Shown: positions 1,519 to 55,700, counted from the stretch's first letter. The stretch: DNA of 64,000 bases from an uncultured bacterium (GCA_964385615.1 CAYLPP010000007.1:44426-108425); one strand, 5' to 3'. The notes: generated from the letters alone by a model not told the origin. Program-made: numbers and translations.

Positions 1519-1525
1519 ATTCACC

Positions 1526-6891: not shown

Positions 6892-6935
6892 GGGGGTGAA
6901 TTATAGCAAAAAAGCGGGGGCCGGCCTACCCTTAA

Positions 6936-25700: not shown

Positions 25701-28700
25701 TGTCCGCCGGATAACCCGCGTCTTTCATCTCCTGCGGAAGATTTTCATAGCTGAGTTTGTCCACGATATCCGAGCGGACTTCCTCAATTGTTTCAGTGCT
25801 GACGCCAAGCCCGTACACAAATTCCATATCCGCGATGAACCGGCCCAGGCTGGGAGCGGCTTCAAAAGCCTTATCAAGATACCGATTCGCGGCTTCAAGC
25901 GCGTTCGCGTTCGCGCGGCGGACGCTTTCAGCCGTCAGATCCGCCTGAAGAATCCAGAATTCTTTGCCATTTTCATCGATCGCCGGCAGGCTTCCGTCAC
26001 CCCATGAGGTCGACGAATCTTGAATCATGATCGCCAGAGTTTCATCATCCATCCCGGCCAGATGCGCGTCAACCTTGGGCGAGGAAAACGAGGGAACCGG
26101 TCTACGGCTATTGAGCGCGTCCATAGCCTTATGAATGAAGACACGGCCTAAGGCGAGTTTCAGCGAGCGGACAAGGTCCGCTTTATCTTCCGAATGAGCC
26201 CGAACTCCCATCGCTTTTCTAATCAGGACGTCATAGGCGTCTTCCGGGTTATCCTGCATCCCGTCAATACCTTCCGTTTTCATGAACTGATAAAGCTCAG
26301 CGGCGTTGTTTAAACCATAAATAGGCATCAATCCCCCAAAGTTGATCAGGAGACGGGCCTGCGTAAAATCAATATCCGTTGTCCGGCCGAATTGACCGGC
26401 GAAGAACACCAGCATCTGTTCATTGATCCACGGGAATTCCTCAGCAAGTTTCGCGAGCTCCAGATCCGAAACCGTTCTGAAAGAACCGTCCGGATTGCGG
26501 AGCTTATCACGCAGATACGACGCGGCTTTACCGGCCGTTTTCATCTGTTCCAGATTCATGCCCGCGAAAGTCTCGGCGGGAATCTGCGACAGCATCGGTT
26601 CATCCGGAATTCCCGGATCCAGCATTTTGGCGATTTCGAGTTCCTTACCCGTAAAGCCGTGATCCGCGGCCAGCTTTTGAAGATTCCGTCCGGTCAGCTC
26701 ACCCAATTTCAAGCCGTCGGTCAATTTTTCAGTTTCACGCGCCAAAGCGTAATATCTCTTCAGCTTATCTCCAAGATCAGCACCGAAGAATTCAACAAAA
26801 AGACCATCCATAAAACCTTCGCCGACGCGGTCGAGATCTTCCTTCAGCTTTTTGGCTTTTGCCTGAATTTCAGCTTTCTTTTTCGGATTCTGATTCTCAG
26901 GCTTCTTGAACTCTTCATTGAGATCCGCGATGTCTTTCTTGTATTTTTCATAGGCATCCGTGCGCATTTTGACAAAGGCCGCGCCATCCGCTTTTTCGGT
27001 GAAGCCGGCAAGCTTGATCAGCATCTCATCGCTCATACCCGGAATCGCGGCCTGGAGCGCGCCGAGAACCTTCGCAAGGGCTTTATCCCCGCGGCCCGCG
27101 TTGGTCTTGGCCAACTGAGCCACACGGGCTTCAAGAGCCGCGCGGAGAAGGCTATTCGGAACAAACCCGCGGAAGAACGTATTCTGCTGGAGACCGATCA
27201 GCCAGCGTCCGACCGTAGCCGGCGTTTGAGCCAGACGAACCTTTTCACGAAGCTTTTCAAGCTCCGCTTTCTTAGCCGGAAGTTCCGGGCTCTTCTGCTT
27301 TTCAAGATCCGCGACTTCTTTCTGGAGATCTTCCGTGCGCAGTGCGTCAATCTTCGCCCGGAGTTCTTTAGCCGCCGGCGTATCTTCCTGTTTCTTTTCA
27401 ACAAACTCTGTCTGATAACGTTCACTCAGATGCTTCTGATGCTCCTTATAATCGTAAGCACCATCACTGTTGATCAGTTTCTTCAAACCGAAAATACCCA
27501 CCCCGATAGCGAGACCTAATAGGGCCCAGCCGGAGAGAACCCCCGCGAATGCCAACCCAATTCCAAGAACCGGCAGAGCCACGGCGGCCGCGAAACCTAA
27601 TTTCCGATTCACGGACCAAAGCTTTTCAATTCCCAGCCCGATTACCGCCCCAAGCGCGCCATAGGTCATTCCGACAAAAGTCATGGTAATCATACCGGCG
27701 ATACTAAAAACAGACGTCTTCTGGAAGAAGGCCTTGGTTGTCTCCCAGGTGCTCGCGCTCTTTTTAAGCGGTTTCGCGTGTTCATCTCCGAGCACGAAGC
27801 GCAGGAGTTTCGCGGCACCCGTAATGAGGCCCCAGCCGGTCGGAAGATTGATAATCATCATCGCTATTTTCTGGGTTAAGGGAACTCTTCCGACGGCAGC
27901 GTTATAAGCCTTCCAAACCAAGTTTTTGTCAGCAGGTTTCAATTCATCAATAATCACCGGCTGCTGAAGTTTTTTGAGTTCTTCGGCGGTTTTGAAGAGC
28001 TCTTCAACCGTCATGCGGCTGAAAACTCTTTCACCGAGCCCCTGGCGAATCACCTGCAGACTGTCCATCATTTTCTGAATCTGCTGAAGACCGGCCTGCG
28101 GGTGGAAGGCCATCAGACGTTCCACAAAAACCTGCCGGTGAACTTCGTTAGTGAACGGATCAAAAGCAGGATTGTCAGCCCTGAAAGTATCCAAAATATT
28201 CTCAACGGAATCCGCGCGGCGCGCGACGAAAAGGTTCAGCACCGTTCCAATAACCGGCATGGCGTAAATCGCTCCGCCGCGGATCTTCTCAACCATCGCG
28301 GGAATTCCCTGAGTGACCATCGGCATCCAGCGGGACCGGGCAACCACCGCCGCGACCACACCCACCGCCGGAAGCGCGACTAAAAGAGCCGCGGTGAAAC
28401 TAACCGCGACGACCGCGGCCGCAACCGCCGCTGCAGCGGCGGAAAGCCCCACAATAGCACCCGCAATGGTCCAGCCGTCAGTCTGCGTCATCGGTTTGGT
28501 TTCATCAAAAGTGCCCCAGGCAAACGCGTGGAACTGATATTTCAGATAGGAATAACTGGTCACGCGCACCCAAAGTGCGTTGAAGGTCTGCTTGAAATTA
28601 GTCAGATTCTGCCAGACCCCCTGCATGAAACCTGAGAATCCCCGGCCAAGCACGGGATATTTGAAGAAGCCTTTCTTGAATTCAAGGACTTCATTCTTGT

Positions 28701-34700: not shown

Positions 34701-37700
34701 AGATATCGTTGAAATCGAGAATCAAACCGTCATTATTCCAAAGCTCACTGCGCTTACCGTTTTCACGAATACCCAGAATGTCCGCCAGCGCCTGTTTTTC
34801 AGCGACCTTGCCTCCGCCGAATTTCTGATTGGTGAACGCGCCCAGGTAAATCGCGATAATATCTCCCTTTTCAATTCCCCAGACTTCTTTCACTCCATCC
34901 AGAACATTCTGATTGCGGAAACGGATCTTTTCGCCCGTCTTCGGATTAGTTTTTTCAATCACCAGATTCAAACGTCCCTTGGCCGGGGCTTTTTGCCAGG
35001 TGATCCAGCTCTTCAGAGTTCCGGCAAGGCCCGGACCCGGAAGGTCGACTTCCATCGAATCCTGACGATTACGGAGCGCTGAGATGAAAGCGCCTTCATG
35101 AGAACGGGTGGTCAAAATATGACGGATCAGGTAACTGCGTAAGCGTGATCCGGCGCTGCCCATATCGGAGAAGAAATCTTTCGGACCGGCGGCGGCCTCA
35201 GTGCTTTCAGGAGCTTTTTCCTTACCCGTTGAAGCCTCCGCTTTCGCCGGAGCCTGCTTCGCGGGAGCATTCGCGGCCTGACGAAATACCGGTTCACCTT
35301 CAACAGGTGACGTCGAAGCGGGTTCTTTTCCGCTCATCACGGCATCCACGGCATCTTTAAGTTCACTGCGCCGGCGCGCGATATCCGCTTTCGAACCCGC
35401 GAATTCGGCCCCGCGTCCGACAAACGGCAGACCGCCGGAAAGCCCAGCTTTCGCCGCCGCCTCTTCCTTCGCCGCGAGGCTTTCTTTCGCGTTTGAAAGT
35501 TCACGGGATTTGGCCAGAAGGGCTTCCACTTTTTCCTGAGACAATCCGGCAAGTTTCGCCAGAACATTGATCAGATTCTCACGGGCCTGCTCAATGCGTT
35601 CCGCGCGTTCCTGGCGGGTGCCCGTAGTATCGGCAAGCGCGCGCCGGTAAGCATCCCGAGCCTGGACCGCTATTTCATATTGAGCATCAACACGATTCGT
35701 TCCACCGGCCACATCTGTGGTAGTAGATTCCGTTTCCAGCTGTTTCCAAGCCGCGTCACTCGCGGGAACGTCCTCACCCAGAATTTCTTCTTCAATGACT
35801 TTTCTGGCGGTTTGACCCTGACTGCTCTCCGATTGCTCTTTAACCGCCTGCGGGCTATCCTCTTTCAGCAGAGTCTCAGCACTGCCGGTTTCTCTCAATT
35901 GTTTTGCGATCAGACGGGCCCGCGCGGCTCCCGCGAAATCACCCTGCTGATAACGCTCCGCGGCTTTCGCGTCATACTCATCCGCTAAAATCTTCGCTTC
36001 CGTCCGGCGCTGAAGTTCCTTTGCCTCATTAATCTTTTTCTTCAAGGCGCCTGAAGTCGATTCCGCGGTGTTAGAACTCCAAACCTGGGTATCTTTACCT
36101 TCTTCACGGAAAGGAGCCACGAGACCTTCCGCGACTTCAAGAAGCCGGAGCGCGCCCTCAAGATCTCCGCGGCTGAACGCGTCCCGAGCGGCCTCAAGTT
36201 TTTTCTTGCCGGCGGCTTCCGCTTCAGCGGCAAACTGCTTGCGGAACTGCTTCACACCCATTGAATTTGAAATCGTCATTTCAACGCCGTCAAGACCTGT
36301 CACCTTAATACTGCCCATCTCGCCGATTTCGGCCAGAAGCGCTTCGGCGCTGGTCAGAAGATCCAGGAATTCCTGAAGTCCTTCCTCTTTCCCATTGCCG
36401 GACTTCCACAGTTCCACCGCGCGCTGAAGCTTGGTCTGCGCGTATTCTCTCTTGACGATATCTCCCGATTTCGCCAAATCAACTTCGTAACCCTGAACCT
36501 TGACGCGAGGCTGGCCGTTCTTGGTGCTGACGGCTTCATTCATTAAATCCTGTGCTTCCTTATAGAACTTGAGTTTATCAGCGGAGGTCGTCGCGCTGCG
36601 GGCCTTGGCCAATGCGGCCTGCGCCTGTTCATACTTGGTGACCTGGGTATGCGCGGCTTCATTCTGCTGAACCTTTTCAGACTGGGCCCGGCGGTAAGCG
36701 CCCAAATCGACCGCGTCTTTACCCGGAACTTCGACAGAGTCAAATTTTCCGCCCTGCGCGGCTTCGCCCGCGAGCCTTTCAGCTTCCGCGTATTTCTGCG
36801 CGGCCGTCTGATAGTCACCGGCTTCTTCGGCCTGTTCGGCTTCCTGGCGGAGCTGTTCAGCACGTTTGAAGGAGCTCTCGCTTTTCTGCCGGGCAATTCC
36901 AAGTTCTTTCTGACGGGTCACTTCAGCAACGATCGCTTCACGAGTCACTAAAATTCTTACACCGTTTACCGTTATTTCCACGACTCCGGTCCGGGAAGCC
37001 GCAGATTCAAGGGCTTGAAGCTCAGCCGAAGACTGCTTCTTCAGGTGCTCCGTCGCAAGATCATTGCGCCGGGCGACTTCAGCATCCACCGCTTCTTTGG
37101 AAATAACGACTTCTTCCCCGTTAACCACCCGGCGCGTTTCATTTTTGAATCCGTTGTGAGTGCCAGCGGTTTCCGCTTCATAAGCGGCCATTTCAAGTTC
37201 TTCCGGCGTCATATCCCGAAGAATTTCAGATTCACGGGTCACGACAGGCGCCTTCGCGGATTTCGGAGCCGGCGCGGTTGCCGTTGAAGGCGTTCCTTCC
37301 GGACCATCCACAACCTCGGAACGTTCACCTGAAATCCGGTCACCCTTCGCGGGCTCAACATTGTTCAGTTTGTCGAGAATTTCCTGAGTGGTCATACCGG
37401 TTTCAGCCAGGAATTCAAAAACACCGGACTCATTAAATTTATAAGCCGCCAGGTCGCCGAATTTCTCAATATTGATACCGGCCAATTCCGCGGCCTGCGC
37501 GAAAGTCAGCTGTCCCATTTCACGGACCAGCGCGGCCGCGCTTTTTCCGGGATTTGAAGCGCGATGAATCCGGAAGACAAGAACCATTTCCGCGCCGATC
37601 TGAATGGTTCCGCCGTTTTTAAGTTTGATGGTCAGCGGTCCACGGGTGCCGTTCTGCAGTTCGCGGGCCAAAATCTCAAGTTCCGCATGGGTCATTTTCG

Positions 37701-40700
37701 CAAGCGCTTCAAAACCTTCCCGCACGCCCGCGCCCGCGCGCAGTAATTTAAAAATGTCGTCAGCCTTCACGCCCTGAGCTTCCAGCGTGAAGCGCACTTT
37801 CATGGCGGCTAAACGTTCGGCGGCGTTCAGGTATAAGGCGGCAGGCGTATCTCCGTGAGCGCCAAGAACATCCATGAGGAAGAAAATATCGTAATTCTCA
37901 GCCAAATATTTGGCGACCTGCTCCTGATGATCCAAAGTAGCCGTTTTACGCCGGCCATACTCTGTTTTAACCAGTGAAGAAGGAATCAATTCAAAAACGC
38001 CGGGCTTCGTTTCGACCCAGATCATTTCATGGCCGTCCACGTTTTCACGCGTTCCTTCCGTCAAAGCCTCCTCTAAGGTTTCCGTTGAGCTCTCTAAGAC
38101 AGCCGTTTCTTCCGCGGCCCGGTTCGAACGTGATCTCCAGGACTGGAGTTCAGAAAGAGCCGAAGCTTCATGTCCGGTGGGCGGAGGCAGATTCGCGAGA
38201 TCCGCTTCGCTCATGGAATTCAGACGGTCCAGAGCCGCGCGGTAACGGGCGGCGAACTTTTCATTTTCAGCCCGTGTTTTCTCAGGATTCTGCTGACGGC
38301 GGGCCCGTTCACGGCTGATATCTTCCTTACGGACCTCAATATTTTCTCCGAAATATTTACGGTTAACACCGTCCCGGTCTTTCTGAGAACGCGATTCTTT
38401 TTCCAGGCGGTCCAATTTCCCTTCACTCTGAGTCTCAAGGAAACGGCGGACGCGTTCACGGCGGATCGCTTCACGCGACACCAGCATTCTCTCACCCCGT
38501 GAATTACGCACCCAGACATAACCGTTCGGACCGTCGTGAGCGGGATGAGAATCGATCCGGGTCAGCTCTCCGTGCGACAACTCACCAAGGAATTCTCCCT
38601 GAAGCCGTTCCAATTCCGCTCTCGCGGCTTCTGGAGAAATTTCATAACCTTCAGAAGTCACGTTCTTAGGCCCATCCTTAGTACCGTCGGCAGGTTTCTC
38701 GTTGGCAATCCGGTGAAGTTCAACAAGCCCCGCGTCGCCCCGTTCGGAGGTCCGCCGGGCGGCATCCGCTTCTTTGGCTTTGCGCGCTTCTCTCGCAAGA
38801 TCCTTGGACACGTCAGGATGCTTTCCGCCCTGTTCAATTTCTGAAAGTTCCCGATGCGTCAGGTCCAGAGCGCTCCGGCCTTCGGGACGGCGGGCAATTT
38901 CATCACGGATAGCCTGACGCTGTGCCGGATCCGTCGTTTTATTCAGCAGTTCGAAAAGTTCCGTGGTGTTACGTCCGGCCAGCGCGGCATGCTCATCCGA
39001 AACTTCCGGCGATTCCTTAAATTCCTTGCCGGGCTCAACATTCGCTTCCGCTTCACTGACCGCTTTCTTGGCCATTTGCTTCGGATTCATGTGCTGAGGA
39101 AGCATCATGAAAAGTAAATCCTGCGCGAGCATATGCATCTGCTCTTCACTCAGGTGGGTCCAGCCGATCATGTTCGTAAAGCGCAGAATCGGCATCGTCA
39201 GATTTTCACTCAGTATCGGCATCAATTCCATCACCGCCCATGAAGAGCTCAGGAAATAAGCGGGATTCGTCAGCGGGTTAAGCGCGTGGGCGAGAATATG
39301 GTTATTTCTCATGAACCGGGCAACCGTTGACGGCCGGAGACCGAAGATGCTGAGGAAACTGGTAATACCCACCTCAGAAAAGACCTGAGCGCGTCTCTGC
39401 GTCGCGCCGGCAACGATATTTTCAATCCACTTGGCCGGACCCGCAAGCAGATCCTTAATCAAGCTTTCACCCGTGCTCCCCACTTTTTGCATTCCCGTGT
39501 TTCCGAAGACCGCGAGCGCCGGGCCCATGCGCACGCCCATCCAGAAAGCGCCGACTACGCCTTCACCGGCTTCTTCATCCAATTTTTCATCGCCGTGTTC
39601 AGCCCGCTGTTCACGCATGGACAAATGCGATTTGGAGCCGAACCAGAATGAGCGTTTGAAAGGACTTTCGCCTTTGATCAGGATGCGCATCGCGATATCA
39701 AACTGCGCCCACTGAAGACCGGTAACAATCCCCTTCTCTCCAAAAACCAGCGTGATGTTCCAAAGCTTGGCAAAAAATCCTTTGTACTGACTGCCGAACA
39801 TAAACCGGTGAACCCACAATTCCGCGTCTTTCGCCGCTTCGCGGGACACGAACACCTGAGCGTTTTTAGCGATATTCGAAAAATCCATCCATTTTCCGAA
39901 TCCCTTGGATGGATCCTTGTTAATCAGCGCGAATGCCTTGGTCAGGAAAAGCCTCATCACACCGACACCGAGGATAATCAGACCGAAATAGAAGAACATA
40001 CTGGCCATCGTGCCTTCTTTACTGCTCTTGTATCCGCCCAACAGGTACCCGGTAAGAGTCGCGCCCGCGCCGACACCCAAAATGATGGAGGTCAAAGTAA
40101 CTGAGGCGATCTGGCTCTGAACTTCAGCCTGAAGAGCTCCTTCAATCGGTTTGGGGAACGCGCGGGCCAGAGCCGTATGTATCAAAACCATAATCGCAGC
40201 GGCAATCAGCACGCCAAGCACTGTCGCCGCGATATCACGCATCGCGTCATTGCCTGTGTAACCCGCGTAAAGATAAACACCGAACGCAGTGCCGAGCGCG
40301 AAACTCGATCCAAGAATCTTCACAGCTTGCCCCGTGCGAAGCATGATACCGCCCGCCATGAAACGAAGGGCGATGCTCAGGCCAAAAGCCAGCATCAACC
40401 CAGCGCCCGCGGCTTTTAAGAATTCATTGCCCGTCTTATCGCCATACCAGTAAAGAGCGGTAGAAACCGCGAACCCGCCGGTCAAATACATCATCAGGCG
40501 GAAATTTTGGAGCATGAATTTCTTCGCGCTTTCACGCACGGTTGATAAAACATAGTTCTTAAAGAACGATGACGCGAGACGGCTAAAGATAACCACGCCG
40601 ATAATAACCCCAATCACGACCGCCGTAGCTTCAAGAACACCCCGGACCTGCTCAAAGACCTCCGCGGTAATTCCAAACACATCCAGGATGACACTTTTCA

Positions 40701-43700
40701 CGGCGGCTCCGACAACGCTTGCAATCGATGAAACCAGGGTTATAAAATTCGAAACCGCGGTCACGACTGTCTGCACAATCGGCGCGATAAAGGCCTTATA
40801 CACCTCAACCACGACCCGGCCAACGATATAAGCGGCGACCGCCACTACAGTCACTGCGGCAAGCGCGTAACCCGCCAGTGAAACCAGTGAAACGATTTTG
40901 CTGATCAAAGTCTTAGCATGCCAATTGGCGAAACCAAGACCGGTCAAAAAGTTGGAAGAAGCCGCGAGACGGTTCATCAAATTTCCGAAAGAACCTTTCA
41001 GGAAATTCCGGTATTGAATGCGCCAGAAAGCGGCGGTATGCAGAAGCGAGCGCTGAACCGCTTTCGGCAGGAAAACCCAGACGCCGGCCAGCGGTGAAAG
41101 CACAACCTGGCCTACCCCATAAACCAGCTGAACCGCGCCGAGCGCGATCGAACGCGCCACCCCGGCAAACCCTGTCCCCAGGCCGACTACAATGTTCCGG
41201 ATGCCGGTCGCGAAAATTTGAGCGCCGGTCGCATTGGCGCCCGCGTGGAAAAGAAGTTTACCGACGGCGGAAGTTCCAACCCCCCTGACCATAACTCCTG
41301 TGAAAGCCGCTCTCAGAATAAACGCGGACCCGATAATCAGGAACGCGGCCAGCCCGATGCCTTTAAGGATGTCACTATCCAGGAGATGACCGATAACGGC
41401 CACCGCGAGCGCGGCCGTAAGACTCGCCGCCCAGGCGTTTCGGACAAGGAAAGCTCCAACGTGGTAAACCGCGAAAACAGGCGCCGTCACCAGCACAGCG
41501 AAAACGCGTCCAATCACGCTCTTGGGCACCCATCCGCCGAACAGGAGTTTCATAAAACCATTTTGAGCGGCGAATTTTTGAAGCGGCAAAATAACATTTT
41601 TGAAAATCCAGGTGCCAATAACTTTCAAGACCGCCAGGGCGCGGGTACCGAGGGCGACCATGGCCGGAATGATTCTGGGGCCCAGGATCACCAACGCGAC
41701 CGTGATAAAAATCTGAGTTAACCCGACAAGCAGGGGCGGTACCAAAACCGCGGTCATGGCAATAAAGGAGCTGATCCGGAAAACACTGCCGAGAATCGAA
41801 GTAAACGCGGCGGTCGGCGCCCATCCTGTGAAAAAGATGGCCATATAGCTCTTCAGCAGGTCCTTAACTCCCACTGGGAACGTCGTGGTAAACACTTCAA
41901 CCGCGAACGCGGCAATCACGCGCGCCGCCCCAACAATCGCCCGGATAACAAAAGGCGCCGCGACAACCAAAAGGACGGCAACCGCGACCGCGGCTAAAAC
42001 GGCAACCGCGACCCCCACGGTTCCGGCAATCGCGAAGAAGACACCGACCGAGACTGCCGTGATTACACTTATCGTCGCGACAAAGGCGGTCACGATTAAA
42101 ATCTGTGTCACCAAACCGTGCGCCGCGAAACCCGTAAAGAACGTGTTAAAGAACTTAAGTGCCGTATTTTTAAAGAACGTGGCAATTTTCGTTACGGCAA
42201 AAATAGCGGCGTTCAGCAGCTGCATTCCGCCGTTAGCCGCCATAAGAGCAAGACCGGCGATCACCTGCCCGAAACCGTAGAAAATTTGCACAAGAGCCAT
42301 TCCGACACTCTTGACGCTGCCCCAGATCGCCGTTTGGAAGACAGCCTTGAAAACCGTAACGACTCCCCTTACCGCCATCGCCGCCATGGCAGTGATGGCC
42401 GCGGGAATTTTAACGAAAATAAACCGGAGAGCCGCGCCGACGTTAAACATGACAATCGACGTGGCTGAAAGCATGGCCAGGAAGAGGCCGTCCACAAACG
42501 CCGAGGCTTTATCCTTTTCATTTCCAGTCGCCAGACTGAACCCGCTTCCAAAAATCTCAAAAGGCACCAGAAGAATTCCACCGACCATCTGAACGCCCAT
42601 GACCACGTATTTACCAATGGAGGTTTCCGCGATGCTCGAGAGAAGGCCTTTCAGGCCTGTCACTTCGAGAACCACGATAAGCGCCGCTACAAACAACCTG
42701 GCGATCCCTGACACAAGATTTTTAACGAAACGGCCGAAGGCATTATCGAGGACCGATTCATAAAGCATGCCGGTCACAAAACCCGCGGTATAAAGAATCG
42801 TTCCTATAATGGCCGCCTTGGCCACAAAAGTCAGCTGAGCCACAATAATCGCGCTGGCCAACTGCGCCGCGGTCAAACTCGCCACAGCACCCGTCGCGCC
42901 GGAAGCCGCGCCCGCGGCAGCAGCACTGCCGCCGCCGCCCAAACCACCGCCCGCCGTTAACTGCGCCGCCGCCGCAATAATACCGATCGCCATGACGGCA
43001 ACACCAATCGCCTTGATCGTATCGCTGCCCACCGCGTAACCAATTCCGACAATCGCCAAACCCACCAGGACAAAAAACGCGGCGCCGGCTAACACAGCGG
43101 CCGTCACGCTAGTCGTCGCGATTCCCAACCCCGCGAGAATCGCCGTTCCGACACCCGCGGTGAAAACCGTAATCGCGATCACAAGCGCGATCACTAAAAC
43201 AACCGCCGCGACCTTCGCGATCACCGGCAAACTGCTCCACCATGTTTTGAAGTCGGTCACGATAATCTGAGCGACGCTCGTCTTGGAGTATTGGCTCATC
43301 TGCATGACACCGCGCGCATCCGCCGTGAAACCTTTCGACTCCAGCTCCGTACTGGCGCCAAAAATCCACTTAGAAACAAAACGGTCTTCCGACTTGCTCT
43401 TGACGGTACCGTCGGCTTTGTAAGTCCAGGTCATACGGGTTTCGTCGCTGGGCTTGCCGATGCGGATATCAATCAGGCGGCCGAATTTATCCACCTGAAT
43501 ATAGGTGCGGTCCGTTTCATCCTGCTTGTACTGATTGATTTTCATGGCATCAACCAGATTTCCGTCTTTATCAAACGTAAACGAGTGCGTCTGGCCCGGC
43601 ATCCGTTTAACGTCAGCCATGTCAATTTCCCCATGACCGCGGACCGTGAATCTCCTGACCGTGCCGGGCCGGTTCAAATAAAATTCAATACTGCTGAAAC

Positions 43701-46700
43701 GCTTGCCGATCTGAGAATCAGAATTAAACAGAGCCACATACGACATAACAGGCACATGATCACCATTCGGCAGACGGTCATACTGACTCTGAAACTTCAC
43801 AAGCATGGTGGCGCCCATTTTCCGCTCTTCTTCATTGGCCGGAGTGTGCAAAGGCACCATTTCAACCGCGTCTTGTTCAGAAAAGCTGACTTTGGCTTTG
43901 GATCCGTCAAACACATACTGTTCACCCAGATGGTTGTTGAACAGAACCGGCTTTTCGACCTTATGCATCTGGTCGTCTTTGGCCAGCCAGTATTCAAAGT
44001 GAATCAATTTATTATTTTTATCGCGGATGGTGTTCCTCATGGTTTTTTCATCCCAGCTGACACCGATAAACGAGGTGTGATAAGTTTCTCTAGATGAAAC
44101 GGAACCATCCACATGGTAGACATTTTCTTTGTAAATCTTGGACGTTTCGTCGCGCGCTCCACGGGTGTAGGTAAGATCACCCTTGCCGGTCATGGCGAAA
44201 TACTGATCACCAACCTTATAGAAGACGGAATTTTCAATATCTACTTTGTTGTGAGCGTCTTGAGCCGACTCCATATAACTGCGCGCTCTCGAAAAACCAA
44301 CCGTGTCGTCACCAAAGGCGAAATAGGCCGTGGGAGAAATGACAGCCAGCAGAATATTTTTAGCGGTCGAATTCGTTCTTTCTTTATCGATATCCTTAAG
44401 CTTCGTGCCTTCGATTACTTTTCCGTCTTTATCCACAACCTTCTGGACGCCGCCGCCGTGCATACTGACATAAATCGCGCCATCCTTATTTCCGCCTTCA
44501 GGAAGCCTGCGGATGACTCTTCCCTTGTCATAATCACGTGTGTCGGCCGTGTAAACTCGTTTATCCCCATCACCCGTATACCGGGTGATGACCCGGCCTG
44601 AAGAATCGAGCGCGATCGTTTCGCCGTTTACTTTAATTTTCTGGGAGGTAAAGACCCCATTATCGCCGGCTTCGATTTTCGCGTTGCTGTCCGTCAAAGC
44701 CGTCCAGAAAGTCATGTCTTTAGGACCGCCTCTGTTAAAGTGCGACTCCCCATCGTCTTCCGGTTTTTCAATTTTGGCGCAGAAGCCCGTGCACCGGCCG
44801 ATCACAAAGTTTCCGCTCAAATCGCTGACAATATATTCACCTGAGGTCGAAGGAATCCCCTGATTTTCACCCGCCCAGATCATGCGGTTGTTTGCATAAT
44901 CCCTGATATGGGTGGCCCAACCGCCGGCAAGAGGCTGACGGAAATTTCCATTGAAGAAACTCTGCATATTCGCTTCCGTGAACCGCGGGTTTACGGCTTG
45001 GCGCCAGGCAGCGACAAACCGGCCATTGTGGAAATACCCGGTCAGTACAGATCCGTCTGACATCACGCTTGCGAAATTTGTAATCTGATTCGAGGCGCCG
45101 CCCAGGAAATTTTTATTCGCCGCGTCGAAGTAAACAATGTTCCCATTATTTCCCAACTGGCCCAAGTACTTCCCGCTGATCATGGATTTCACATAAAACC
45201 CGCTGACCATGATGGAACTTCCGCCATCCGTGCGGTCCTGACCTGTCTGATAAATCCGGGAATTCGCGTGATCATTAACATCCATGGAATACTGCACTCT
45301 GCCGTTCTTATCGGTAAACCAGGAAGTGATCAGGTCGTAGCCTTCTTTTGAATTCCCATTAAGCTTAATGCTGTGCTTAACCCCTTTTTCATCCGTCAAT
45401 TCAATGAAAGCATTGCCTTTTACCCATAAGGAGTTACTCTCACCCGCGGACGGCAGTTTAAAGACTCCATCTTCACGGTATCCCGTAATCTTGTGCGTAT
45501 CCTGATCTTCGATCAGGTATTTGTTTCCCGCAACCTGGGAACCGCCTTGATCATTTCGAAAACTATCCATGACCCGGTAAATCTGGCGAGTCTCATGGTT
45601 AACAACATTCAAGGCGTACCTGGTCCCAAGCCCTTGCTCAGGAGATTCAAAAATGCGGGCCGTCACGATAAATCCGGCTTCGTTGACCATCACATCCACG
45701 GCCTGACCGCTTCCGGTGTGGGTATAGGCCGCGTAAGGATGACTGACTCCTTCACTTGAAGCATGACGTCCGCCGACGTGCTGGAGCGGAGCAATCGGTT
45801 TACCCCACCCCTGATTAACACCAATCACCCGGCCGCCGTTCAATTCCGCGACCAAAGCTTCCCGCAGTTTGCCGCTGCCGACCCCAGAAGCTGAAAGGTA
45901 AACACGGCCGGAAGAATAATCCGTCAGGTTGGTCAGCATCACACCGTCGCGGGAATACCCCATCAAATCTCCGCTGGAGGTCAGGTACATTTTGTACTTG
46001 CCCTTATCGGTTTCATCCGTGCTGGTGAACTCGATAGTATGCCCAATCATTAACAGTTCGGGCAGACCGTCAAGCTCTGAATACCCCCCGCGGAATTTGT
46101 CACTATTCAATGAAGTGTAAGTCTCATCGCCCGGAAGACGGATTCCCGTAATTTTTCCCGTGTAAAGATCGCGGACAACCACTTGTTTCGCGAACCTCGC
46201 GACTCCGCCGTTATTTTGATGCGCGGGAAGTTTCTGATGGATATCGTAAATAACCCCATTCGTGTAGTCCGTCGCGCCCATAATGGGCACCACACCTCTA
46301 TCATTCTTATCTTCTTTTCCGTAAGCACCGACCAAACGGTTATCATCGTCAAAGTAGAAAATGGCCGTTCCCGCGGCAGAAGCGCCTTTAACCGTCATGC
46401 CGGTTACAGCCTTATCGGTCCCAATGGCACCCGGGACTTGATTCCCCTGAGCATCCAGTAAGTACCGCATGGTGAAGTTCGAGATCGGGTTCTTCGGATC
46501 CGAATTACTGGCGCTGAAGGAATAAAAGACACCGTCTTTAATCACACCTTCGTACTGGAAGCTGTCGCCGATACGTACCGGGCGGATCCCTTCAATCTGC
46601 TTGCCGTCCGGGGTAATCATCATGTAGACCCGGCCGGTTTTATAGTCGGTCATGTTTGAGAGGAATGTGGTTGAGCGGTCACGGCCCTGGAGCATTTCAC

Positions 46701-49700
46701 CCATGACATAGCCGTTTTCATCCAGATACGTCGTCACATACCGTCCGCTGTCGCCGTCTCTTCCGCGTTCCCGACTGACATAAAAGGAACTTGCCGTCAG
46801 ACCATTCGCGCCGGGAATCTGCGCGTACTGCGCGTTGGTGCCGGTAAACAGCCGAAGCGCCGCGAAGCCGTCCGTTTGATTCCAGGTACCGATCATCCGG
46901 CCAGGATCCGTCATATCGGCAACACCGACATTCCAGCCGGTCATCCCTCCGCGCTGACCGAACATCAGAATTCTTTGGTTCGCGTTGTCATAGACATTGC
47001 CCAGAATTACTTTATTTTCCGTCTGAGCGTCACGGGTCATGACAAACCGGCCCGCTTCATCAAAGTAAAGAAGGCGGTCATTGACTTTGTCTCCGAAAGG
47101 CTTGTCCGTCTGGTAATAACTCATGGCGCTCATTTCATATTCGGTGCTCACACCGCCGGCGTCAGGATGGGGCGTTGGACCGGTATGACGGGCGCCATCC
47201 ATATAGAACCTCCCGCGTTCATCTAATTTTTCCCGCAGAGGGTTAAGCAATCTCTGGCCGGCAGGATCCACGTAGTTAAAAACCGTGTTTGTATCGTAGC
47301 TGAAAATTTTCCGGACACTGTCATTACGCTTATAGTCGCCTTCACCGACAACCAAAAGCCGGTTTTGATTGTCTAAAATCAAATACTCAGAGCCGGGAGT
47401 TCCCCCAATGCCGTCGTGAACCAGTTCCAGGAAAGTAACACCCGTATAGCCGTGGCGCCCGCGAAGCATAGGCTGAAGCATGTCATTAATGACTGGGCAA
47501 AGTTTGTCGTCACCGAAACGCTTGTCAAGAGCCAGAGGAACACGGGCTCCGTAAATATCATCACGGTAAACTCCCTCACTGCGGCGAACTCTGACGCCGG
47601 CCTGAAGCGCGATTCCGGTAATCTCACCAGTCACCATACTCTTCACCTGGATCGCGAAACCGTTGGTATCTCCATAAGGCTGATACAAGGTCTTGGTCGT
47701 ATAGTTGGCACCGTAGGTAATCTTGGCGTTTTTAATGACTGCGGCGAGAGCCTTGGCATCACCCTTCGCGGCGGTAAACCCGGCCGTAAACGCTTTCCCG
47801 GCCAGAGAGACCCGGTTCTGCTTATCAAGCGTGATGAACTCCGTCTCACCCTTGCCGCCCGGAATCACACGGCGGAACGATCTCACGCTTTCAACAACGA
47901 CGGCAGGATGGTTCTTATCTTTTGATTTGCGTTCGGCCTCCTTCGAATCCACTTTCTCTTCAACCAGTTTCGCGCCGGTATACGCGTCAACCGCCGTCAC
48001 AAAATCACCGGAAGACAATTCGAATTGAAGCAAAATGCCCTGCGAACCCTGCGCCAGCGACCACTGCTTATTCGCGCTGATATTCAGGGCCCAAGTAATC
48101 TTGTTGTTTGGTTTGGCCGCGAAGAAATTCTGACTCGTCCCGGCCAGCACCTGGCGGTTGAGCGCGTCCAGACCGATAAATTGGCCTTCATATTCATAAA
48201 TGGTGGCCGGACCCACGAAAACTTCCCCTGAAGACGGATTGGCGGAAAAGCGTCCGGTCACTTTTTTACCGAGTTCGTTATAAACATCCGTAAAAGAACC
48301 GGTGGAAATCTTGGAAGAAATGAACAGTTTGTCAGCGTTTTGGGCCGCGGACCACTGCTGATCCGTCTTGTAATTGGCCGCGTAAGAGACTCTCAAAGAG
48401 GTTTTAAAATCACCGGTACCCCGAAGCACGACACGGTCTTCGGCATCCAGCGCGATGAATTCATTTTCCAGAGTCGACGGATTTTTACGGATGAAAACAA
48501 TCCGGCTTTCCGTTTTAATATCTCCGCGTTTGATATCTTTCGCGGTATCATCCGTTACGGTTCTATCGGGCGCTTTGCCGGTATGCGCGTCGAGCATATT
48601 CACGCGCAGACCCGAGTCCATGTTCGTTATCTTCATAAATCCGCCGATCGCGGACCCGGAAATTCTCTTTTCATAATCCGCGAAATACGTCAGGCTGAAA
48701 GCCGGTAATTCCTGCTTCTTCAAATCACCGTTACCAATCGCGAGCACCCGGAACTTTGTATCCAGGACCAAAAACTCTCCGGTCTCAATATCATCGCCGA
48801 CCGGGATTCTCCGGACGGTCTGAACCGTTTCATCTTTTTTACCCAGCTCCATGTCGCCGACCTTCAGATTCTGATCGGTTCCAATAGTCAGGCTCGTTCC
48901 GCGCTGAGCATCGTAGACGCCGAAGCGCAAGCCGGTGTCCATATGACTCATCATCAGGAAACCGCTGCTCTGAATCCGGTTCCATTCGACACCCGTTTCG
49001 AAATTGGCGGCAAAATCAATAAAGAAGTTCTTCGTTCCGGGCCGGAGATAATCCCCCTGACCTGACAGCACGGTGCGGTTCTGCGCGTCCAGGGCCACGA
49101 ACTCGCTGGTTCCGTCAAGACCGACACGGGCGTAAACCGCGGTGCTCTTGGTTGAAATCCCGTTGGTTCCGAAAGAAATATTCTGTTCAGCCTTGTCCGT
49201 CTTGGGCTTAATTTCCGTTCCGCGCTGAGCGTCATACATACCCTTGAATTCCCCGGTCGAATTCGTCACCGCGCGCAGAATTCCGCGTTTGTCACGTGAC
49301 CACATCATGTTAACCATCGGGTCAAAGTTGACCGCGAAGGTGATCATCGCGTTGACATCCGTGCCCAGCTTCGTCCAATCCCCGTTACCGCTCATGACGA
49401 CTTCATTATTCGCGTCCAGCGCGATGAAGGTCTGAGACCCGTCATGACCTTTAGTCACATACACAACGGAGGATTTGGTTTTAATGTCTCCCTTGCTGAC
49501 ATTTTTAGTCGAAGCATTATCAATCTTTTCAAGTTCACTGCCGGTGCGGGAGCTGAAGATTCCTTTAAATTCACCGGTCTGCATGGAAACGGCTTTCAGG
49601 AAACCATCCGCCGCCGCGCTCCAGGTCATTTTCGTCGCGTAGTTGGCCGCGTAAGTAATATTAAACATGGGAGCCGTGGGCTTCGTAAAATCACCCGTTC

Positions 49701-52700
49701 CCGTCAGGCTTACGCGAAGTTCACCGTCAAGCATCAGGAATTCAGAAGGCGAAGCGTCTTTACCGGAGGTTTTAACGTACACGCGCCGGCTTTCAGTCGT
49801 CACCGTGCTTGCCGCTTTGGGATCACGCTTTTTATTCAGCGCGTCAATTTCAGCCTTTGTCATATCCCGGCCGGCGATGACATTTCCAGTATTGGAATCA
49901 CGGACTTCATCCAGACGTTCACCTGAAGAAATAACGCTGGTTACCAGGAAGCTGGCGGATCCGGCGGCCCGGGACCAGACACGGTCACGTTCATAGTCCG
50001 CGGCGAAGCTGATAAGGAGGCTTGACCCCTGGACATTCGAGCTCCCCCAAAGATCACGGTAATTGCCCGTTCCCAGCAGGACGACGCGATTCTCAAGATC
50101 AAGAGCCAGGAACTGGGAACGTCCACCCGACAGAGGGGTACGGGAGTAAAAATTCTCAGCGGCAATTTCATTATCTTTCCCGGTGCCCAGCTTGATTTTT
50201 CCCGCAGTCGGAGATCTTTGAGGCTTGATTTCATCGCCCGTTTGACCGTCAAAAACACCCACAAACGCGTTGGCCGAAATTTTCTGCCCCAGCATGAAGC
50301 CTTCTCCAGCGTTGGACCACCGCATATCAACCGCGGCATTGTAGTTGGCAACCAGACTCAGCTGGCGGAGCAGAGGTTCTTTAAAGTTTCCGTTACCGGC
50401 CAGGACCAGACGGTTTTCCGCGTCAAACGCGATAAATTCCATCTTGTGGCCTTCAGGAGAAAGCCGGGTGTAAACAGCCACGCTCTCCGTTTTCATCTGG
50501 CCAATCTTGATATTTTTCGCGGCGTCAGTTGTATCCGCTTTGAGTTCAGCCCCGGAATGAGCGTCATAAACGCCGAATTTCTCGCCCGTCGCGGTACTGC
50601 TCATCCGCATAAACCCGCGGCTGACCAGTGTCAGCTGGCGCTCAAGCGTATAGTTCGCGGCAAAAGTTAATTCAAACATGGCGGAGCTCGGATGGAGGAA
50701 ATCACCGCGCCCGGCGAGAACAATGCGGTCTTCCCCGTCAAGGGCCACAAAGTTGGTCTGCTTTGAATCAGGATGCTCGATCACATAAAACTTCTTGGAT
50801 TCCGTTTGAAAATCGCCGACCTTCATATTATTGACACCGCCGGCGTGCGCCGCGACTTCCTTACCGGTATAAGGATTAAAAACACCTTTAAACGCGCCGG
50901 TGTCCATATGAGTTGAATAAAGCGCGCCGTTACGGTTCACCCATATCTGACGAACCGCCGGGTCATAATTCGCGGCATACATAATCTGGAGGACGGTGCC
51001 CTTACGGCCGTTCTTGCTCATATCGCCCAGAACATAAAGAGACTCACGGCCTTCAGAATCAAAGAAAACGTTTTCCAGTTTCCCTTCACGGTTCTTAACG
51101 GTCCAGCCTGATTTTGACTGAGTCTTCACGCCTTCAATATTGGCGTAAGCGGTCACGTCAGCATCCGTCAGTTTCTTTCCGGTGATTCCCTTCTGGTTCA
51201 ATACGGCAACCAGTGTATTGTCGGAAAGTTTGCGCACAATCAGGGCTTCACCCGTGCGGCTGGCGGTCCAGCTTCGGTCCTGCTCAAAATTAACCGCGTG
51301 CATAATCGTAATGTCAGCAGGATGGCTGATAATATCGCCGGAAGCGACCAGCGTAATCCGGCCTTGGTCGTCATACAGATAGCTTTCACTCGGTCCGTCA
51401 TGAGAGCTGACCACGGCCGCGTGAGTCGCGTTGACGGTAACCGCCCCGCGGTTATAACCGCGGATATCCTGAACTTTGATACGGACATTTTTGGAGGGAC
51501 TGACAAACCCAAGCAGGTCGCCGGTAAAAATACTGCGTTTAATCAGCGCTTCTCCGCCCTCACGCTGATAAATAAAGCCGTTCGCGCTATCCATCGCGTA
51601 GAAGACCTTCTCCATTTTCCCGGAGCTGGTGACCGCGCAAAGTTTCAGGTTGGCGTCAAAATGAACCACAACCTCACCTTCTATTTTTCCGTCCACAAGC
51701 GTTTTGACTTTCCGGCTGTAAACAGACTTAATCGTATCCGTTCCCTGATTGCTGTTAAATTTAATGGCCTGATTGTTCGCGGCCAATGCTTCGAGATCGC
51801 CGGCACCGTCCCAGAAGCCGATCAAATCACCGCCCATGGTCATAACCGGGAAATGGCCGTCCACAATTTGACCGCCGCCTTGGACAAGAACACCAAAAAC
51901 CACATTGTTCTTGCGGTCAATAATGTTGGAGTAATACTTCAGGGTCGGACCCATTTTTTCTTTGGATGAAGTCGTGACATGCTGGCCGTCATCCGTCAGG
52001 TGGATAATCCGGGGACCATCCGGCATTTCGAGCTGAATGTAGGCGCTGGTGCTGACTCCGGTTGACTCATGCACCGTGGGAACAGCTGAAATTGAAACAC
52101 CGGTCTTAACACCCTTCGAACTGATACTTCCAAGCATACGCCCGGTGTCCATGCTGGAATAAGCCGCCGGTCCTTTCAAATCTTTGAAAGAAACCCCCTG
52201 CAGGGTCGTGTGAATAATCGTCCGGTCTCTGAAATTAAAAATATCCAATGAATAAGCTTTCGCGGGATCGGACATATTTCTGGCCGTCGCGACACGGCAG
52301 CCGAATGAGCAGTCCAGGAAAACGGTGTGGTTCTGTCCTCCGTCGGTCTGAACCCCTTCAAGAATCGCGTCCGTTTTGACGCCGCCGAAATGCGTGGCAG
52401 AAAACGTGGTGACGCTCTGAAGACCTTCAAAAGCATTCCATTTCCCAATGATGACACCGCGTTCCGTATCCTCAACCAGGACATTGTTCGAAACCCCGCC
52501 GAACATGGTCATCATGTAACGGCGATGATTGGTATGATCCATCAGATCAATCACGTGGTGAAGAACCGGCTGACCGTCCTTGCGGACCTGCCCCGTATTA
52601 AAGGTGCCGCCGACCAAACGGCCCATGCTATCAAGATAAATCGTGATCGGTTTTCCCGCGCCTTCCTTGCCGATAACGCCCTCAATGACCATCGCGCTTG

Positions 52701-55700
52701 AGAACGCGCTTCCGGTTCCCGAAAGCCACTGCACCTGTTTAACCTTGGCGGCAACAATCTTACTGCCGTCCCACGAACCGAGAATACGCTGTGTCCGGAT
52801 ATCCATCACCGGAACATTGGCTTCCAAACCGCCGGCCAGTGTCACCATGTAGCTGATGCCCTTCGTGTGATCCGTAATATCCGTGATGAATTGAACGTTT
52901 TTAGTGCCGTCGGCTTTAAACTGGAATTTTTCTCCAAAAACCAGTTCCGCTCCGACAAAACGGCTCATGGAATCAAAATGCATGGTCACCGCTCCGCGGT
53001 TGCGGTCAACAACCTGCAGTTCTCCGGCAGCAGCCACGGAAATATCGTTCATCTTCACGGTGTGAAGGGTTTTCTGGATCGCCACCATCTTCCCGTTCTG
53101 CATCACTCCAAGCATATTTCCGGAAGCGATTGAACGGATAAAATAAGAGCCCGCCGCAAGACTGACTCCTTCCGACTGGGTGTGGAAAGACATCATCCGC
53201 GCGTGATCAAAAATAGTGGAGTCCCGGCCAATATGGGTGCTGACCAGCGGGTGATTGCTTCCCATATTCAGGTAGATCGCGACTTCCTTGCCCCCTTCAG
53301 GACCGGAACCGACGCTGGTGCCGGAAAGAACCGTATTATAGGAAAGAGTGGATCCTCCGTCCGGAGTCGTTTCGGTACCGGTTCCGCTCATGAACTGGAA
53401 ATTTTCACCGATCCGGATATCAAAAATGTGCGTGAATCCAGCCGTCAGCATTTGGGTGCCGTTCATCTTCGTCACGTCAGTATTTTGACGGGCATGGCCC
53501 ACGGCGGCAGCGTAACTGTTAACCGTTAATTCCAAACCTTCGGAGTCGGTAAATTTAAAAACCGGCGGACGGCCTTGCCCATAAATCGCCGTGGCTTTCG
53601 ACGTAATGGGGATTTCGGTCATCTTCCCGTTAAGCATTCCCTTTATCGAACCTTGATAGTAAACACGCTCCACGGTTTTCGTTTTGGTTTTTTCATTGTA
53701 AGAAATAAAGCTCGTGCTCTTGTCTCTGTGAGTGATCGCGACACGCAAAACTTTTCCGGCGGCATTCAAATACACCACACGGTTACGGCGGTTTGTATCC
53801 ACACGAACGACCGTCGGAGAGAGGTTGTGCTCAACGGAAAGCGTCTGATAGTTCACATTCGCGAGACTGACTGTCGTACGCCGGCTGAAATACTGGGTAT
53901 ACATGGAAGTGGAGATATAAACGCCGGTACCGACGATACCTTCCGTTGACAGGCTGACAACCCCCCACTTATCAAAGAAGGTCCAGGAAACACGTACGGC
54001 CGATTCCGGGAAAAGCTGCCCTATCTGACCGACGACACCGCCGAAAGCAAACCCTTTAACATCAAGCTTCGGATTCGCGGGAAGCTTCAGCCCCGTACTC
54101 AATGTGCCTAACCCGATAATTTTTCCAACCAATTTCATCAGAGTGGTGGAGATAAGACCAAAGTTCACACCGCCCATCAACGCGTTATAAAGCTTGGAAA
54201 CAATTGTTCCGGTTCCGGGCCCTCCGCCGGTAAGCGGATTCATGTTTTTTGAAGCCAGGTACTGCTGGACACCATAAATCAGCTGAACGGCGGAATGCTT
54301 TCCTCCGGTAGTCAGATCCGCGAAAAATCCGCGCATCAGCCCTGTCAGCGCGGCCGCGTCATTAATGGTCAGAGAATCCTGGCCCATGAACATCACCGCG
54401 CCGATCACGGAGGCCGAAATCGCTTCGCTGTTTCCGGTTTTGAAAATATCAAGCAGAGGCGCGAACAATTCAGGACGGCTTTCAACCTGCTTGCCAAAAG
54501 CCTCGACACGGTTAATAAGAACCCCGAAATCGAGCTGGGAGAATTTAAAAATCTGAACCCGGACATTGTGCGGAGTCGCGAAGAAATTACGGATAAAATT
54601 AACCGTCGTGGCTGAGACTGTCGGATTCAGGCTGTTGAGTTTCGGTGAAGATCCGGCGAGATCTACAGCTTCCAGAAACAGCTGTCTTACATCATTAAGA
54701 TTCAGATCCAGGCCTTCGGCCAGAGTCTTGGGAAGGTTCGGGTTTTTCTGGATCAGGATCGGATAAATGAAAGCGATCGTCGCTCCGCGCAAACGCTGGG
54801 TCGCCGCCGCGTCCAAACCGCCCGACTTAGTCGCTACTTCTAAAAGCGAGCCGAGAATCGCGGCCTGATCCGCTGAGGTCAATTTGTCAAATTTATCAGG
54901 ATTTTCAAAAATAGCGTTAATAACATTCGTCGCGAGCTCGGCATTGCCCACCAGATTCAGATTTTTGAGTATCTGAGGCGCGACCGCGAACCGGTCTTCC
55001 ACACCCAGCGCGAGAAACGCGTTCTTCGCTTCCCGAGAAAGCGAGCGGACAGCAGCCGCGACAACAAAAGCCGGTAAAGTGGGGTCATTCGCCTTCACTT
55101 TTCCAAGGAATTCAAGCAATTGCCCCGCCTGCTGAACCGCGACCTTGTTATCCCCCGCTTTGACCAGGTCTTCAACGACCGTCACACCTTTGCTTACGAG
55201 GTCTCTGCGCACATCCTGAGTCAGATTCGGAAGCTGAAGGTAGGCCGTAATCAAGTTCCCGTGCGTTTCAAGCGTGAGACCCGCCGGACGGACGGGCGCC
55301 AGCACGATATCCGTAATAATTTTGTGAAGTTTTTCAGTCTGAGCCGCGGCTCCGCCTCCCGCGCGCAGAACAAGAATCGCCGTCGCGGCTTTATCTCCGA
55401 GATCCGTAATACTGTCCACTGCCGCGGTCAGTTTTTCAATGATGGCTCTTTTAGCAACCGGATCGGTGAACTTCAAAAGCGCCAAACCGTTTTGCACAAA
55501 GGTTCTTCTTTCACCGTCATTGGCGAACGCGGGAGGATTAAGAATCTGCGCGGAAAGGAACTGAACCGCTTCAATACGCTGAGCGCCCGTAAGGAGATAA
55601 ACGGCGTCAATATTCTGGAAAAGTTCAGGAATCGTCAGCGTGCCTTCCCCCTTGAAAACAATCGCCAACCGGGCGGTCAGGGCCTGCTGCTGATCCTCGT

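Follow-up and report, generated by a model that had tools for sequence, protein, structure and literature searches.

A giant open reading frame (ORF) on the minus strand of a 64,000-nucleotide stretch of DNA from an uncultured bacterium (GCA_964385615.1 CAYLPP010000007.1:44426-108425; in the following, the window) contains a long run of hairpin modules that ends shortly before a block of hydrophobic, presumably transmembrane (TM), segments. An initial annotation had drawn attention to repeated hairpins at window positions 43300-47650 and had compared them with the YD repeats of RHS proteins, teneurins and Tc toxins. We consider it fairly probable that this interval is the membrane-proximal third of an array of ~26 copies of an undescribed all-beta module, likely a scaffold, in a giant membrane protein of the Omnitrophota. 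The likeness to YD repeats appears, from the sequence comparisons described below, to be convergence on the common Asp-x-x-Gly-Arg beta-turn.

The module and its arrays

The giant ORF occupies window positions 19750-63987 (-), with 14,745 codons uninterrupted by a stop in a single frame. Position a of the protein corresponds to window base 63987-3(a-1), and the flagged interval represents residues 5446-6896; the plus strand of this interval contains no long ORF. At the right edge of the window the frame is still open, since the codons at 63999-63988 (-) read ANGY and are free of stops. The giant protein therefore has at least 14,749 residues and its true N-terminus lies beyond the window. The GTG at 63987, listed as the start of the ORF, is probably not the real start.

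The repeat unit is a module of 105-125 residues in which a variable leader or linker of ~25-35 residues is followed by three conserved hairpins. The first hairpin, (Y/F)x(D)xxG(R)x(V), is the only YD-like one of the three; the second has the form xxTDYxxGR(V/I)Y and the third consists of a GG turn followed by VxDxxxGxxxG. Matches to the motif (T/N)D(Y/H)xxx(R)(V/I)Y are spaced 107-126 residues apart in the flagged region and occur almost nowhere else in the giant protein. They anchor eight tandem modules, the m-array (Table 1). A hidden Markov model (HMM) trained on these eight modules only recognized untrained copies ~1,900 residues upstream, at residues 3776-3853 (independent E-value, iE, 5e-9) and 3665-3741 (1e-5), and later HMM rounds added copies at residues 3592-3631, 3880-3955, 3955-4061 and 4100-4164, which together make up the d-array. 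A combined HMM of the 24 defined modules found 26 copies lying back to back from residue 3623 to residue 6540, including two bridging copies, at residues 4100-4164 and 5520-5573, on which it had not been trained; it found no copy elsewhere in the giant protein or in the next ORF. The flagged interval is the last third of one contiguous run of ~26 modules (residues ~3592-6540, ~2,950 residues), and the repeat continues far past the limits initially assigned to it, upstream to window position ~53214.

The c-array, situated between the d- and the m-array, is the strongest internal repeat signal in the giant protein, with E-values down to 1e-27 in a windowed phmmer self-search. Its copies, 12-13 by jackhmmer, follow the consensus EFxALDxENRVVLxGxGD...ITxAANY...WS...GFL...STGxFxGVxDxxTG...TES, and the mean column identity of their alignment (A8) is 35%. 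When the c-array was compared with the m/d profile (A7) by hhalign, 77 columns aligned at an E-value of 0.001 and the order of the three hairpins was preserved, which indicates that c-array and m-array are one module family. The degenerate module that joins them was detected by the combined HMM although it was not in the training set (iE 8e-4 at residues 5520-5573), by jackhmmer (residues 5533-5568, 3.6e-9) and by phmmer, which pairs residues 4951-5009 with residues 5523-5577. This module forms the N-terminal portion of the flagged interval together with the first ~35 residues, which are part of the last c-module.

Protein identity between module copies is 15-35%, from which it follows that the duplications are old. 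Tandem Repeats Finder revealed no DNA tandem repeat in the flagged region, and a blastp self-comparison of the giant protein at 1e-5 missed all of the repeats, for whose detection windowed phmmer was required. In composition, the array is enriched in G, D, N, T and Y and depleted in A, L and E.

Relation to RHS and YD repeats

The hairpin motifs themselves are genuine. All five peptides cited as examples were recovered in the minus-strand translation of the giant ORF, two of them inside the repeat array (YFDEAGRFVMTRD and TDYKTGRVYMMITPDG) and three clustered near the end of the interval (FTFDKDGNLVDA, YIQVDKFGRLIDI and TWTYKADGTVKS). In residues 5446-6896 there are 12 matches to a loose hairpin pattern (hydrophobic-x-hydrophobic-[DNT]-x-x-[GN]-x-hydrophobic), compared with 0.95 ± 0.98 in residue shuffles, an enrichment of about 12-fold. 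None of 2000 shuffles contained 12 matches, and the remainder of the giant protein has 1.5 per 1451 residues. Judged against the shuffles and against the rest of the protein, the hairpin signal is not due to chance. The spacing of 20-30 residues ascribed to the motifs applies only between the three distinct hairpins of one module (20-35 residues) and between the hairpins at residues 6769-6864, but not to the YD-like hairpin (aromatic-x-D-x-x-G/N-R-hydrophobic), which occurs once per 105-125 residues. The hairpins at residues 6769-6864 (window 43396-43683), three to four in number, isolated and 23-34 residues apart, belong to the juxtamembrane segment that follows the array. No Pfam or NCBIfam family was found above noise in this segment (residues 6541-6925).

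The initial annotation had proposed searches with PF05593 and TIGR01643 and had regarded the absence of hits, in combination with a predicted structure unlike a beta-solenoid or shell, as evidence against a YD-like repeat. No RHS, YD or teneurin-shell model of Pfam or NCBIfam (including TIGR01643) was obtained at E<=10 with the whole region or with ten sub-segments of 117-254 residues, which argues against the YD interpretation of the region as far as HMM hits are concerned. Since HMMER filters can mask weak matches, a YD HMM was constructed from the RhsD repeats of E. coli K-12 and run with all filters off. The RhsD control scored 202 bits in 19 domains versus 2.5 bits for the region; the best "domains" of the region, at about -2 bits, amount to no more than two turns of 7 residues, DKFGRLI and DEAGRFV. 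In 20% of the cases a shuffle equals the best-domain score of the region, and another part of the giant protein scores higher. In separate scans of 28 modules, one c-module from outside the region matched TEN_YD-shell with an E-value of 0.22, which is at noise level; this match sits among 16 unrelated sub-threshold matches, and no family was matched by more than one module.

The architecture of the array also departs from that of YD repeats. Tandem YD units of ~20-22 residues are not present in it; its period is 105-125 residues with three different hairpins. The initial annotation had correctly stated that no DPxGL...DPxGW core follows the region: DPxG[LW] is absent from all 14,745 residues of the giant ORF in the window, and in place of a C-terminal toxin there is the block of 27 hydrophobic segments. 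The absence of an RHS core means that the hairpin region must serve in another way than a toxin shell does. The transition from the region into a TM block was likewise seen correctly, the first strongly hydrophobic segment being located at residue 6926, 30 residues past the end of the region. Membership in the RHS/YD family was rejected because every sequence-level test of it, by HMMs, period and core motif, failed. What stands of the earlier reading is a repetitive, all-beta hairpin architecture N-terminal of a TM block and devoid of an RHS core; the kinship with RHS, YD, teneurin and Tc proteins does not.

Predicted structure of the module

Module m3, modeled by AlphaFold2 from a 16-row alignment, has a mean predicted local distance difference test score (pLDDT) of 72.7, with ~84 over residues 31-118, and a predicted template modeling score (pTM) of 0.56. 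Of its eight beta-strands, three long ones belong to the first half, and those of the second half are short; the first 20-25 residues are of low confidence. On this basis, the module is predicted to be all-beta and built of hairpins, with about eight strands around the three hairpin turns. A model of two modules, obtained from an 8-row alignment of non-overlapping pairs (A4), is also all-beta, with ~7-8 strands per module, and poor (pLDDT 45.9); its confidence drops to ~24 at the module junction.

In a Foldseek search of the PDB with the m3 model, no match was found at E<=1e-3. Almost all of the top 50 matches are beta-propellers, with TM-scores of 0.2-0.27 and root-mean-square deviations (rmsd) of 8-10 Å; these weak matches include tetrathionate hydrolase (E 7.7e-3), TolB, BamB, PQQ dehydrogenases and WD40 proteins. 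The low-confidence two-module model likewise retrieved mostly propellers, along with the RHS chain 4igl_B (E 4.5e-3, TM-score 0.21) and OspA. A fold search of BFVD gave weak matches of the MORN, YwqK, WD and PQQ types (TM-score <= 0.37). By sequence, the best matches of the module profile in the PDB, with E-values of only 0.03-0.05, were 5muk and 4irt, which we take to be propeller folds; none of the module profiles gave an E-value below 0.03, and the flagged region had no match in the PDB by sequence. The closest resemblances of the predicted module, all weak, are thus to propeller blades. An internal duplication of the module (blade A versus blade B) was considered and is unsupported (hhalign E 0.1).

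Relatives of the module family

A word-indexed search of a 5.8-billion-protein collection revealed no homologue of the region, of the m/d profile together with the P0001 modules (A2) or of the c-array profile (A8). An exhaustive HMM search of 1.84 billion representative proteins returned six proteins at E<=1e-3, only one of which is a true relative. This protein, P0001, is a fragment of 445 residues from the Global Ocean Sampling (GOS) marine metagenome and contains four modules (E 1e-29), to which the d-array modules are the closest of all. The third module of P0001 carries an insertion (residues ~229-356) with a sub-threshold match to NAGPA (phosphodiester glycosidase; E 1.5e-4 to 5.7e-4). 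Of the other five matches, two are WD40 proteins, and there is one each of a Kelch protein, a choline-binding repeat protein and an unnamed repeat protein that ends in a secretion-system sorting tail. They were not counted as homologues, because many near-identical repeats inflate their summed scores. No relatives emerged from scans of genome contigs and metagenome contigs with the region or of metagenome contigs with P0001. To judge from these searches, the module represents an undescribed repeat family; the kind of protein that carries it is known.

Membrane block and the remainder of the giant protein

The repeat array ends ~385 residues N-terminal of the block of 27 hydrophobic segments, each defined as a non-overlapping window of 19 residues with a mean Kyte-Doolittle hydropathy >=1.6. 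The block is unusual: several of its predicted loops comprise 2-9 residues only, acidic residues are almost absent from the loops, and there are stretches rich in Ala and Gly, for example GGGLGGGGSAAAAGAASGATGA. A second cluster, of five hydrophobic segments, is found in the A/L/E/K-rich half of the protein at residues 11854-12151 (window ~27534-28428 (-)).

Pfam searches over all 15 chunks of the giant protein identified a PDZ domain at residues 236-290 (window 63118-63282 (-); PDZ_6, E 3.9e-6, at the gathering score) as the sole family in the 14,745 residues within the window. The scan detected no SecA_DEAD, C39 or S8 peptidase, no dockerin/TSP3 and no multi-enzyme content, all features of the Archaeovorin and Dockerin subtypes; the N-terminal part beyond the window might contain such a domain. 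PDB sequence searches with all three thirds of the protein gave no match. The protein is split in composition: residues 1-6900 are rich in G/D/N/T/Y/S and beta-like, with the exception of residues ~2400-3000, and residues 8100-14745 are rich in A/L/E/K/Q/R and helix-like. Such a division into a G/D/N/T/Y/S-rich and an A/L/E/K-rich half fits an outside/inside arrangement and suggests that the two halves are on opposite sides of the membrane. Bacterial PDZ domains are mostly periplasmic. The compositional split and the PDZ domain point, if only weakly, to a probable location of the array on the non-cytoplasmic side.

The protein has two further peculiarities of sequence. A run of eleven glycines (GGGGGGGGGGG) lies at residues ~393-403 (window ~62779-62811 (-)). 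In the helix-like half, residues 8403-8524 and 8892-9026 (window ~36910-38780 (-)) form two weakly similar internal repeats (phmmer E 3e-4 to 1e-3) that have no relation to the module family.

Possible functions and alternative interpretations

As a long repeat scaffold, the array would space the ~3,600 N-terminal residues from the membrane block with its 27 segments, or present them relative to it, which we regard as its most likely role; the array itself may also offer a repeated binding surface. It would then belong to the "tandem-repeat scaffolds", whose copies are diverged and which form one of the three architectural classes of Omnitrophota giants (Nielsen & Lui 2026, class 2). Several points weigh against this interpretation. 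Both the scaffold or stalk role and the surface exposure are only what we infer. The N-terminus, where a signal peptide would lie, is outside the window, and a rough count of Lys plus Arg on the two sides of the TM block by the positive-inside rule (20 versus 13) is indecisive. A confidently modeled, autonomous beta domain of ~90 residues normally has PDB analogues with a TM-score >0.4. The best TM-scores of the m3 model are 0.27 in the PDB and 0.37 in BFVD, and without an analogue above 0.4 the single-module model may show only part of a larger fold. The two-module model, with a pLDDT of 46, is too poor to reveal the packing of the modules.

The location of the array admits another explanation, which we consider possible but not likely: the N-terminal ~6,900 residues including the array might be kept in the cytoplasm as an intracellular scaffold tethered by the TM block. 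Within the window there is neither a hydrophobic segment before residue 6926 nor a visible signal peptide, and about 46% of the catalogued Omnitrophota giants are predicted to have a TM-only topology with their bulk facing the cytoplasm. Against this stand the truncation of the ORF at the window edge, upstream of which a signal peptide or TM helix is possible, the compositional split, which fits an outside/inside arrangement, and the PDZ domain, of a kind that is mostly periplasmic in bacteria. The modules may be packed as individual beads, as paired propeller-like blades or as parts of one unbroken sheet. If each module were a pair of four-stranded propeller blades, eight modules would supply 16 blades, enough for example for two propellers of eight blades each, and the array would consist of propellers in a row that serve as a platform for binding proteins or glycans. 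The 4+4 strands of the m3 model agree with this idea, as do, with few exceptions, the top 50 matches of both models in the Foldseek searches of the PDB, amine dehydrogenases among them, the profile matches to 5muk and 4irt, and three of the five non-family matches in the 1.84-billion library, which are confirmed propeller repeats. However, all of these matches are statistically weak (Foldseek E >= 1.6e-3, TM-score 0.17-0.27, rmsd 8-20 Å), propellers are abundant in the PDB and the default match for a generic beta-meander, and the library matches are those inflated by near-identical repeats. Moreover, no Pfam propeller family recurs over the 28 modules scanned singly, hhalign detected no similarity between the two halves of the module, and there is no obvious break every 3-4 modules. 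We think a propeller chain unlikely.

A continuous antiparallel beta-helix or tubule, in which the ~110-residue modules would be successive turns of a long hollow spiral that protrudes from the membrane block or forms a conduit on it, seems to us likewise unlikely. It would share the architecture of RHS proteins but not their ancestry. Tubules have been reported for both subtypes of giant proteins described by West-Roberts et al. (2023); the array is all-beta and strictly periodic, with the long strands of m3 in the first half and the short ones in the second; the fold searches yielded no compact-domain analogue; and among the weak matches are, for the two-module model, the RHS chain 4igl_B and OspA-type single-layer sheets and, among the best in BFVD, the hairpin sheets of MORN and YwqK. 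On the other hand, the two-module model is not of usable confidence, model confidence is lowest at the module junctions, whose length and sequence vary, and the searches of the 5.8-billion-protein collection yielded no other giant protein that resembles the array in sequence. In its most far-reaching form, with the ~26 modules as one hollow antiparallel beta-helix of ~3,000 residues, formed by an orphan family unrelated to RHS and placed on the 27-helix block as a protrusion or conduit between cell and host, this idea is speculative and still less probable. A diverged RHS/YD shell, a cocoon or cage of degenerate YD repeats homologous to the Rhs, teneurin and TcB/TcC shells, is highly improbable. 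In its favor are the one hairpin per module and the three to four at residues 6769-6864 that fit aromatic-x-D-x-x-G-R-L, the single c-module match to TEN_YD-shell and the sixth rank of 4igl_B (RHS BC component) for the low-confidence two-module model. These are outweighed by the lack of any RHS/YD model at E<=10, by the 7 residues aligned by the RhsD-derived HMM, by the ~110-residue period with three non-equivalent hairpins, by the missing core and toxin, and by the noise in which the TEN_YD-shell match is embedded. An array of scaffold modules remains the interpretation that we prefer.

Genomic neighbourhood and Omnitrophota setting

For the product of a MiaB-like gene (window 5467-6891), the best 60+ matches come from Candidatus Omnitrophota or unnamed metagenome-assembled genomes with identities of 52-66%, including 59-66% with Omnitrophota genes, and matches in other phyla do not exceed 38%; by this one gene the window was placed in Candidatus Omnitrophota. 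Giant, TM-rich proteins are a described hallmark of this phylum (West-Roberts et al. 2023; Nielsen & Lui 2026) and have been proposed to mediate contact with a host or prey. The protein studied here has the features of these giant membrane proteins: a single ORF of >=10,000 codons, an assignment to Omnitrophota from one neighbour gene, and many TM segments (27 + 5, Kyte-Doolittle). In the published catalogue, 15% of the Omnitrophota proteins of >=10,000 residues have no Pfam or other InterProScan match.

The first ~250-480 residues encoded by a second large ORF, next to the giant gene (Table 1), show similarity to sequence in two loci of Omnitrophota, namely L015 (33% identity, E 5e-23) and L040 (23%, E 2e-19). 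A tblastn search with the giant protein and this next ORF against 74 Omnitrophota loci gave two short matches only, both to the next ORF. The two-component genes directly downstream possibly regulate the giant locus, and the genes at the left window end hint at a locus for a sulfated surface polysaccharide. Both of these sets, like a further neighbour gene for a YjeF_N protein, are of kinds ordinary in diderm bacteria. No secretion or pilus genes were found in the ~19 kb downstream of the giant gene.

Table 1. Positions of the features in the giant ORF (residues, aa) and in the window
Feature	Residues	Window	Strand	Basis or remark
m-array: eight tandem modules, 107-135 aa each	5593-6540	44368..47211	-	HMM iE 1e-11 to 1e-30; alignments A1, A5, A7
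Motif anchors of the m-array	5661, 5781, 5907, 6023, 6130, 6239, 6363, 6485		-	motif scan
Module m3 (AlphaFold2 target)	5954-6071	45775..46128	-	member of the m-array
Degenerate or partial bridging module, c-array to m-array	5481-5592	47212..47547	-	HMM, jackhmmer, phmmer
c-array: twelve ~107-aa modules, better conserved	4197-5480	47548..51399	-	phmmer, jackhmmer, alignment A8
d-array: ~six more diverged modules	~3592-4196	51400..53214	-	module HMM rounds
Juxtamembrane segment (385 aa)	6541-6925	43213..44367	-	no module copy; no module HMM iE better than 0.3
Transmembrane block: 27 hydrophobic segments in ~1,090 aa	6926-8015	39943..43212	-	Kyte-Doolittle
FTFDKDGNLVDA	6803-6814	43546-43581	-	quoted peptide, exact presence
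YIQVDKFGRLIDI	6829-6841	43465-43503	-	quoted peptide, exact presence
TWTYKADGTVKS	6853-6864	43396-43431	-	quoted peptide, exact presence
YFDEAGRFVMTRD	5641-5653	47029-47067	-	quoted peptide, exact presence
TDYKTGRVYMMITPDG	5780-5795	46603-46650	-	quoted peptide, exact presence
Second large ORF (2,656 aa), no Pfam family		11636-19606	-	starts 143 nucleotides after the giant gene
REC+HTH_17 regulator, Hpt protein, CHASE-PAS-HisKA-HATPase-REC hybrid kinase		6936-11507	-	domain search
Wza-like polysaccharide exporter, BBP2-type porin, double sulfotransferase		892-4581	-	left window end

Comparison with known systems

Omnitrophota giants are among the largest known proteins. In one such dark giant, ~3,000 residues, about one fifth, are now defined as a 26-copy module with boundaries, a consensus, an HMM and a single-module model, and the module HMM can be used against the published catalogues of giant proteins. 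A tempting mis-annotation as an RHS repeat or toxin shell is thereby removed, and the case illustrates that a single Asp-x-x-Gly-Arg hairpin motif does not suffice to call a YD repeat. The array shares with RHS/YD proteins (PF05593, TIGR01643, PF25023, TcB/TcC) a long repetitive stretch of all-beta hairpins in a very large protein and, once per module, the Asp-x-x-Gly-Arg-hydrophobic hairpin turn. It differs from them in its ~110-residue period versus units of ~21 residues, in the lack of an HMM match, of the DPxGL/DPxGW core and of a toxin cargo, and in the polytopic membrane block that follows it.

The array also resembles the tandem-repeat scaffolds of Omnitrophota. The resemblance extends to the phylum, as deduced from the neighbour gene, to the size of the ORF (>10,000 residues), the many TM helices and the largely unannotated sequence, and to the use of one domain tens of times in copies too diverged to appear as a nucleotide repeat. 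The described cases employ TSP3, NHL, WD40, HEAT, lectin and similar units, whereas the unit found here belongs to no Pfam family, and the 14.7 thousand residues within the window contain no SecA_DEAD, C39, dockerin or enzyme domain. West-Roberts et al. (2023) predicted with AlphaFold2 an antiparallel beta-helix "tubule" of ~1,500 residues in both subtypes of giant proteins, one variant of which has "external paired antiparallel beta sheets" at regular intervals. As these authors liken the tubule to RHS repeats, the structural intuition of the initial annotation has a published parallel. By description (their Fig. 5), the tubule and the array agree in phylum, protein class and an unannotated, all-beta, periodic region of kilo-residue length; the array, however, is about twice as long, and its modules are separated by variable linkers of low model confidence. 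If the array were the RHS-like tubule of other giants, the tubule would acquire a sequence family and a defined place beside a membrane block, and if the hollow spiral were true, an RHS-like spiral sheet would have been invented independently.

With propeller blades (WD40, PQQ/BamB-like, Kelch, NHL, PD40), to which the weak but most consistent matches were obtained, the module has four-stranded meanders and Asp/Gly turns in common, in a unit of ~110 residues here versus 40-50 residues there, with no match to a family model and a TM-score <= 0.27. A further analogy, restricted to function, is with the stalks of the giant adhesins SiiE, LapA and MpIBP. These adhesins are secreted by type I systems, retained at the outer membrane and built of Ig-like repeat stalks. 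Their repeats are recognizable as Ig-like or cadherin-like and are usually near-identical, unlike the copies of the array with their identity of 15-35%. Like those stalks, the array consists of tens of beta modules of ~100 residues and could extend a distal region of the protein away from its membrane anchor.

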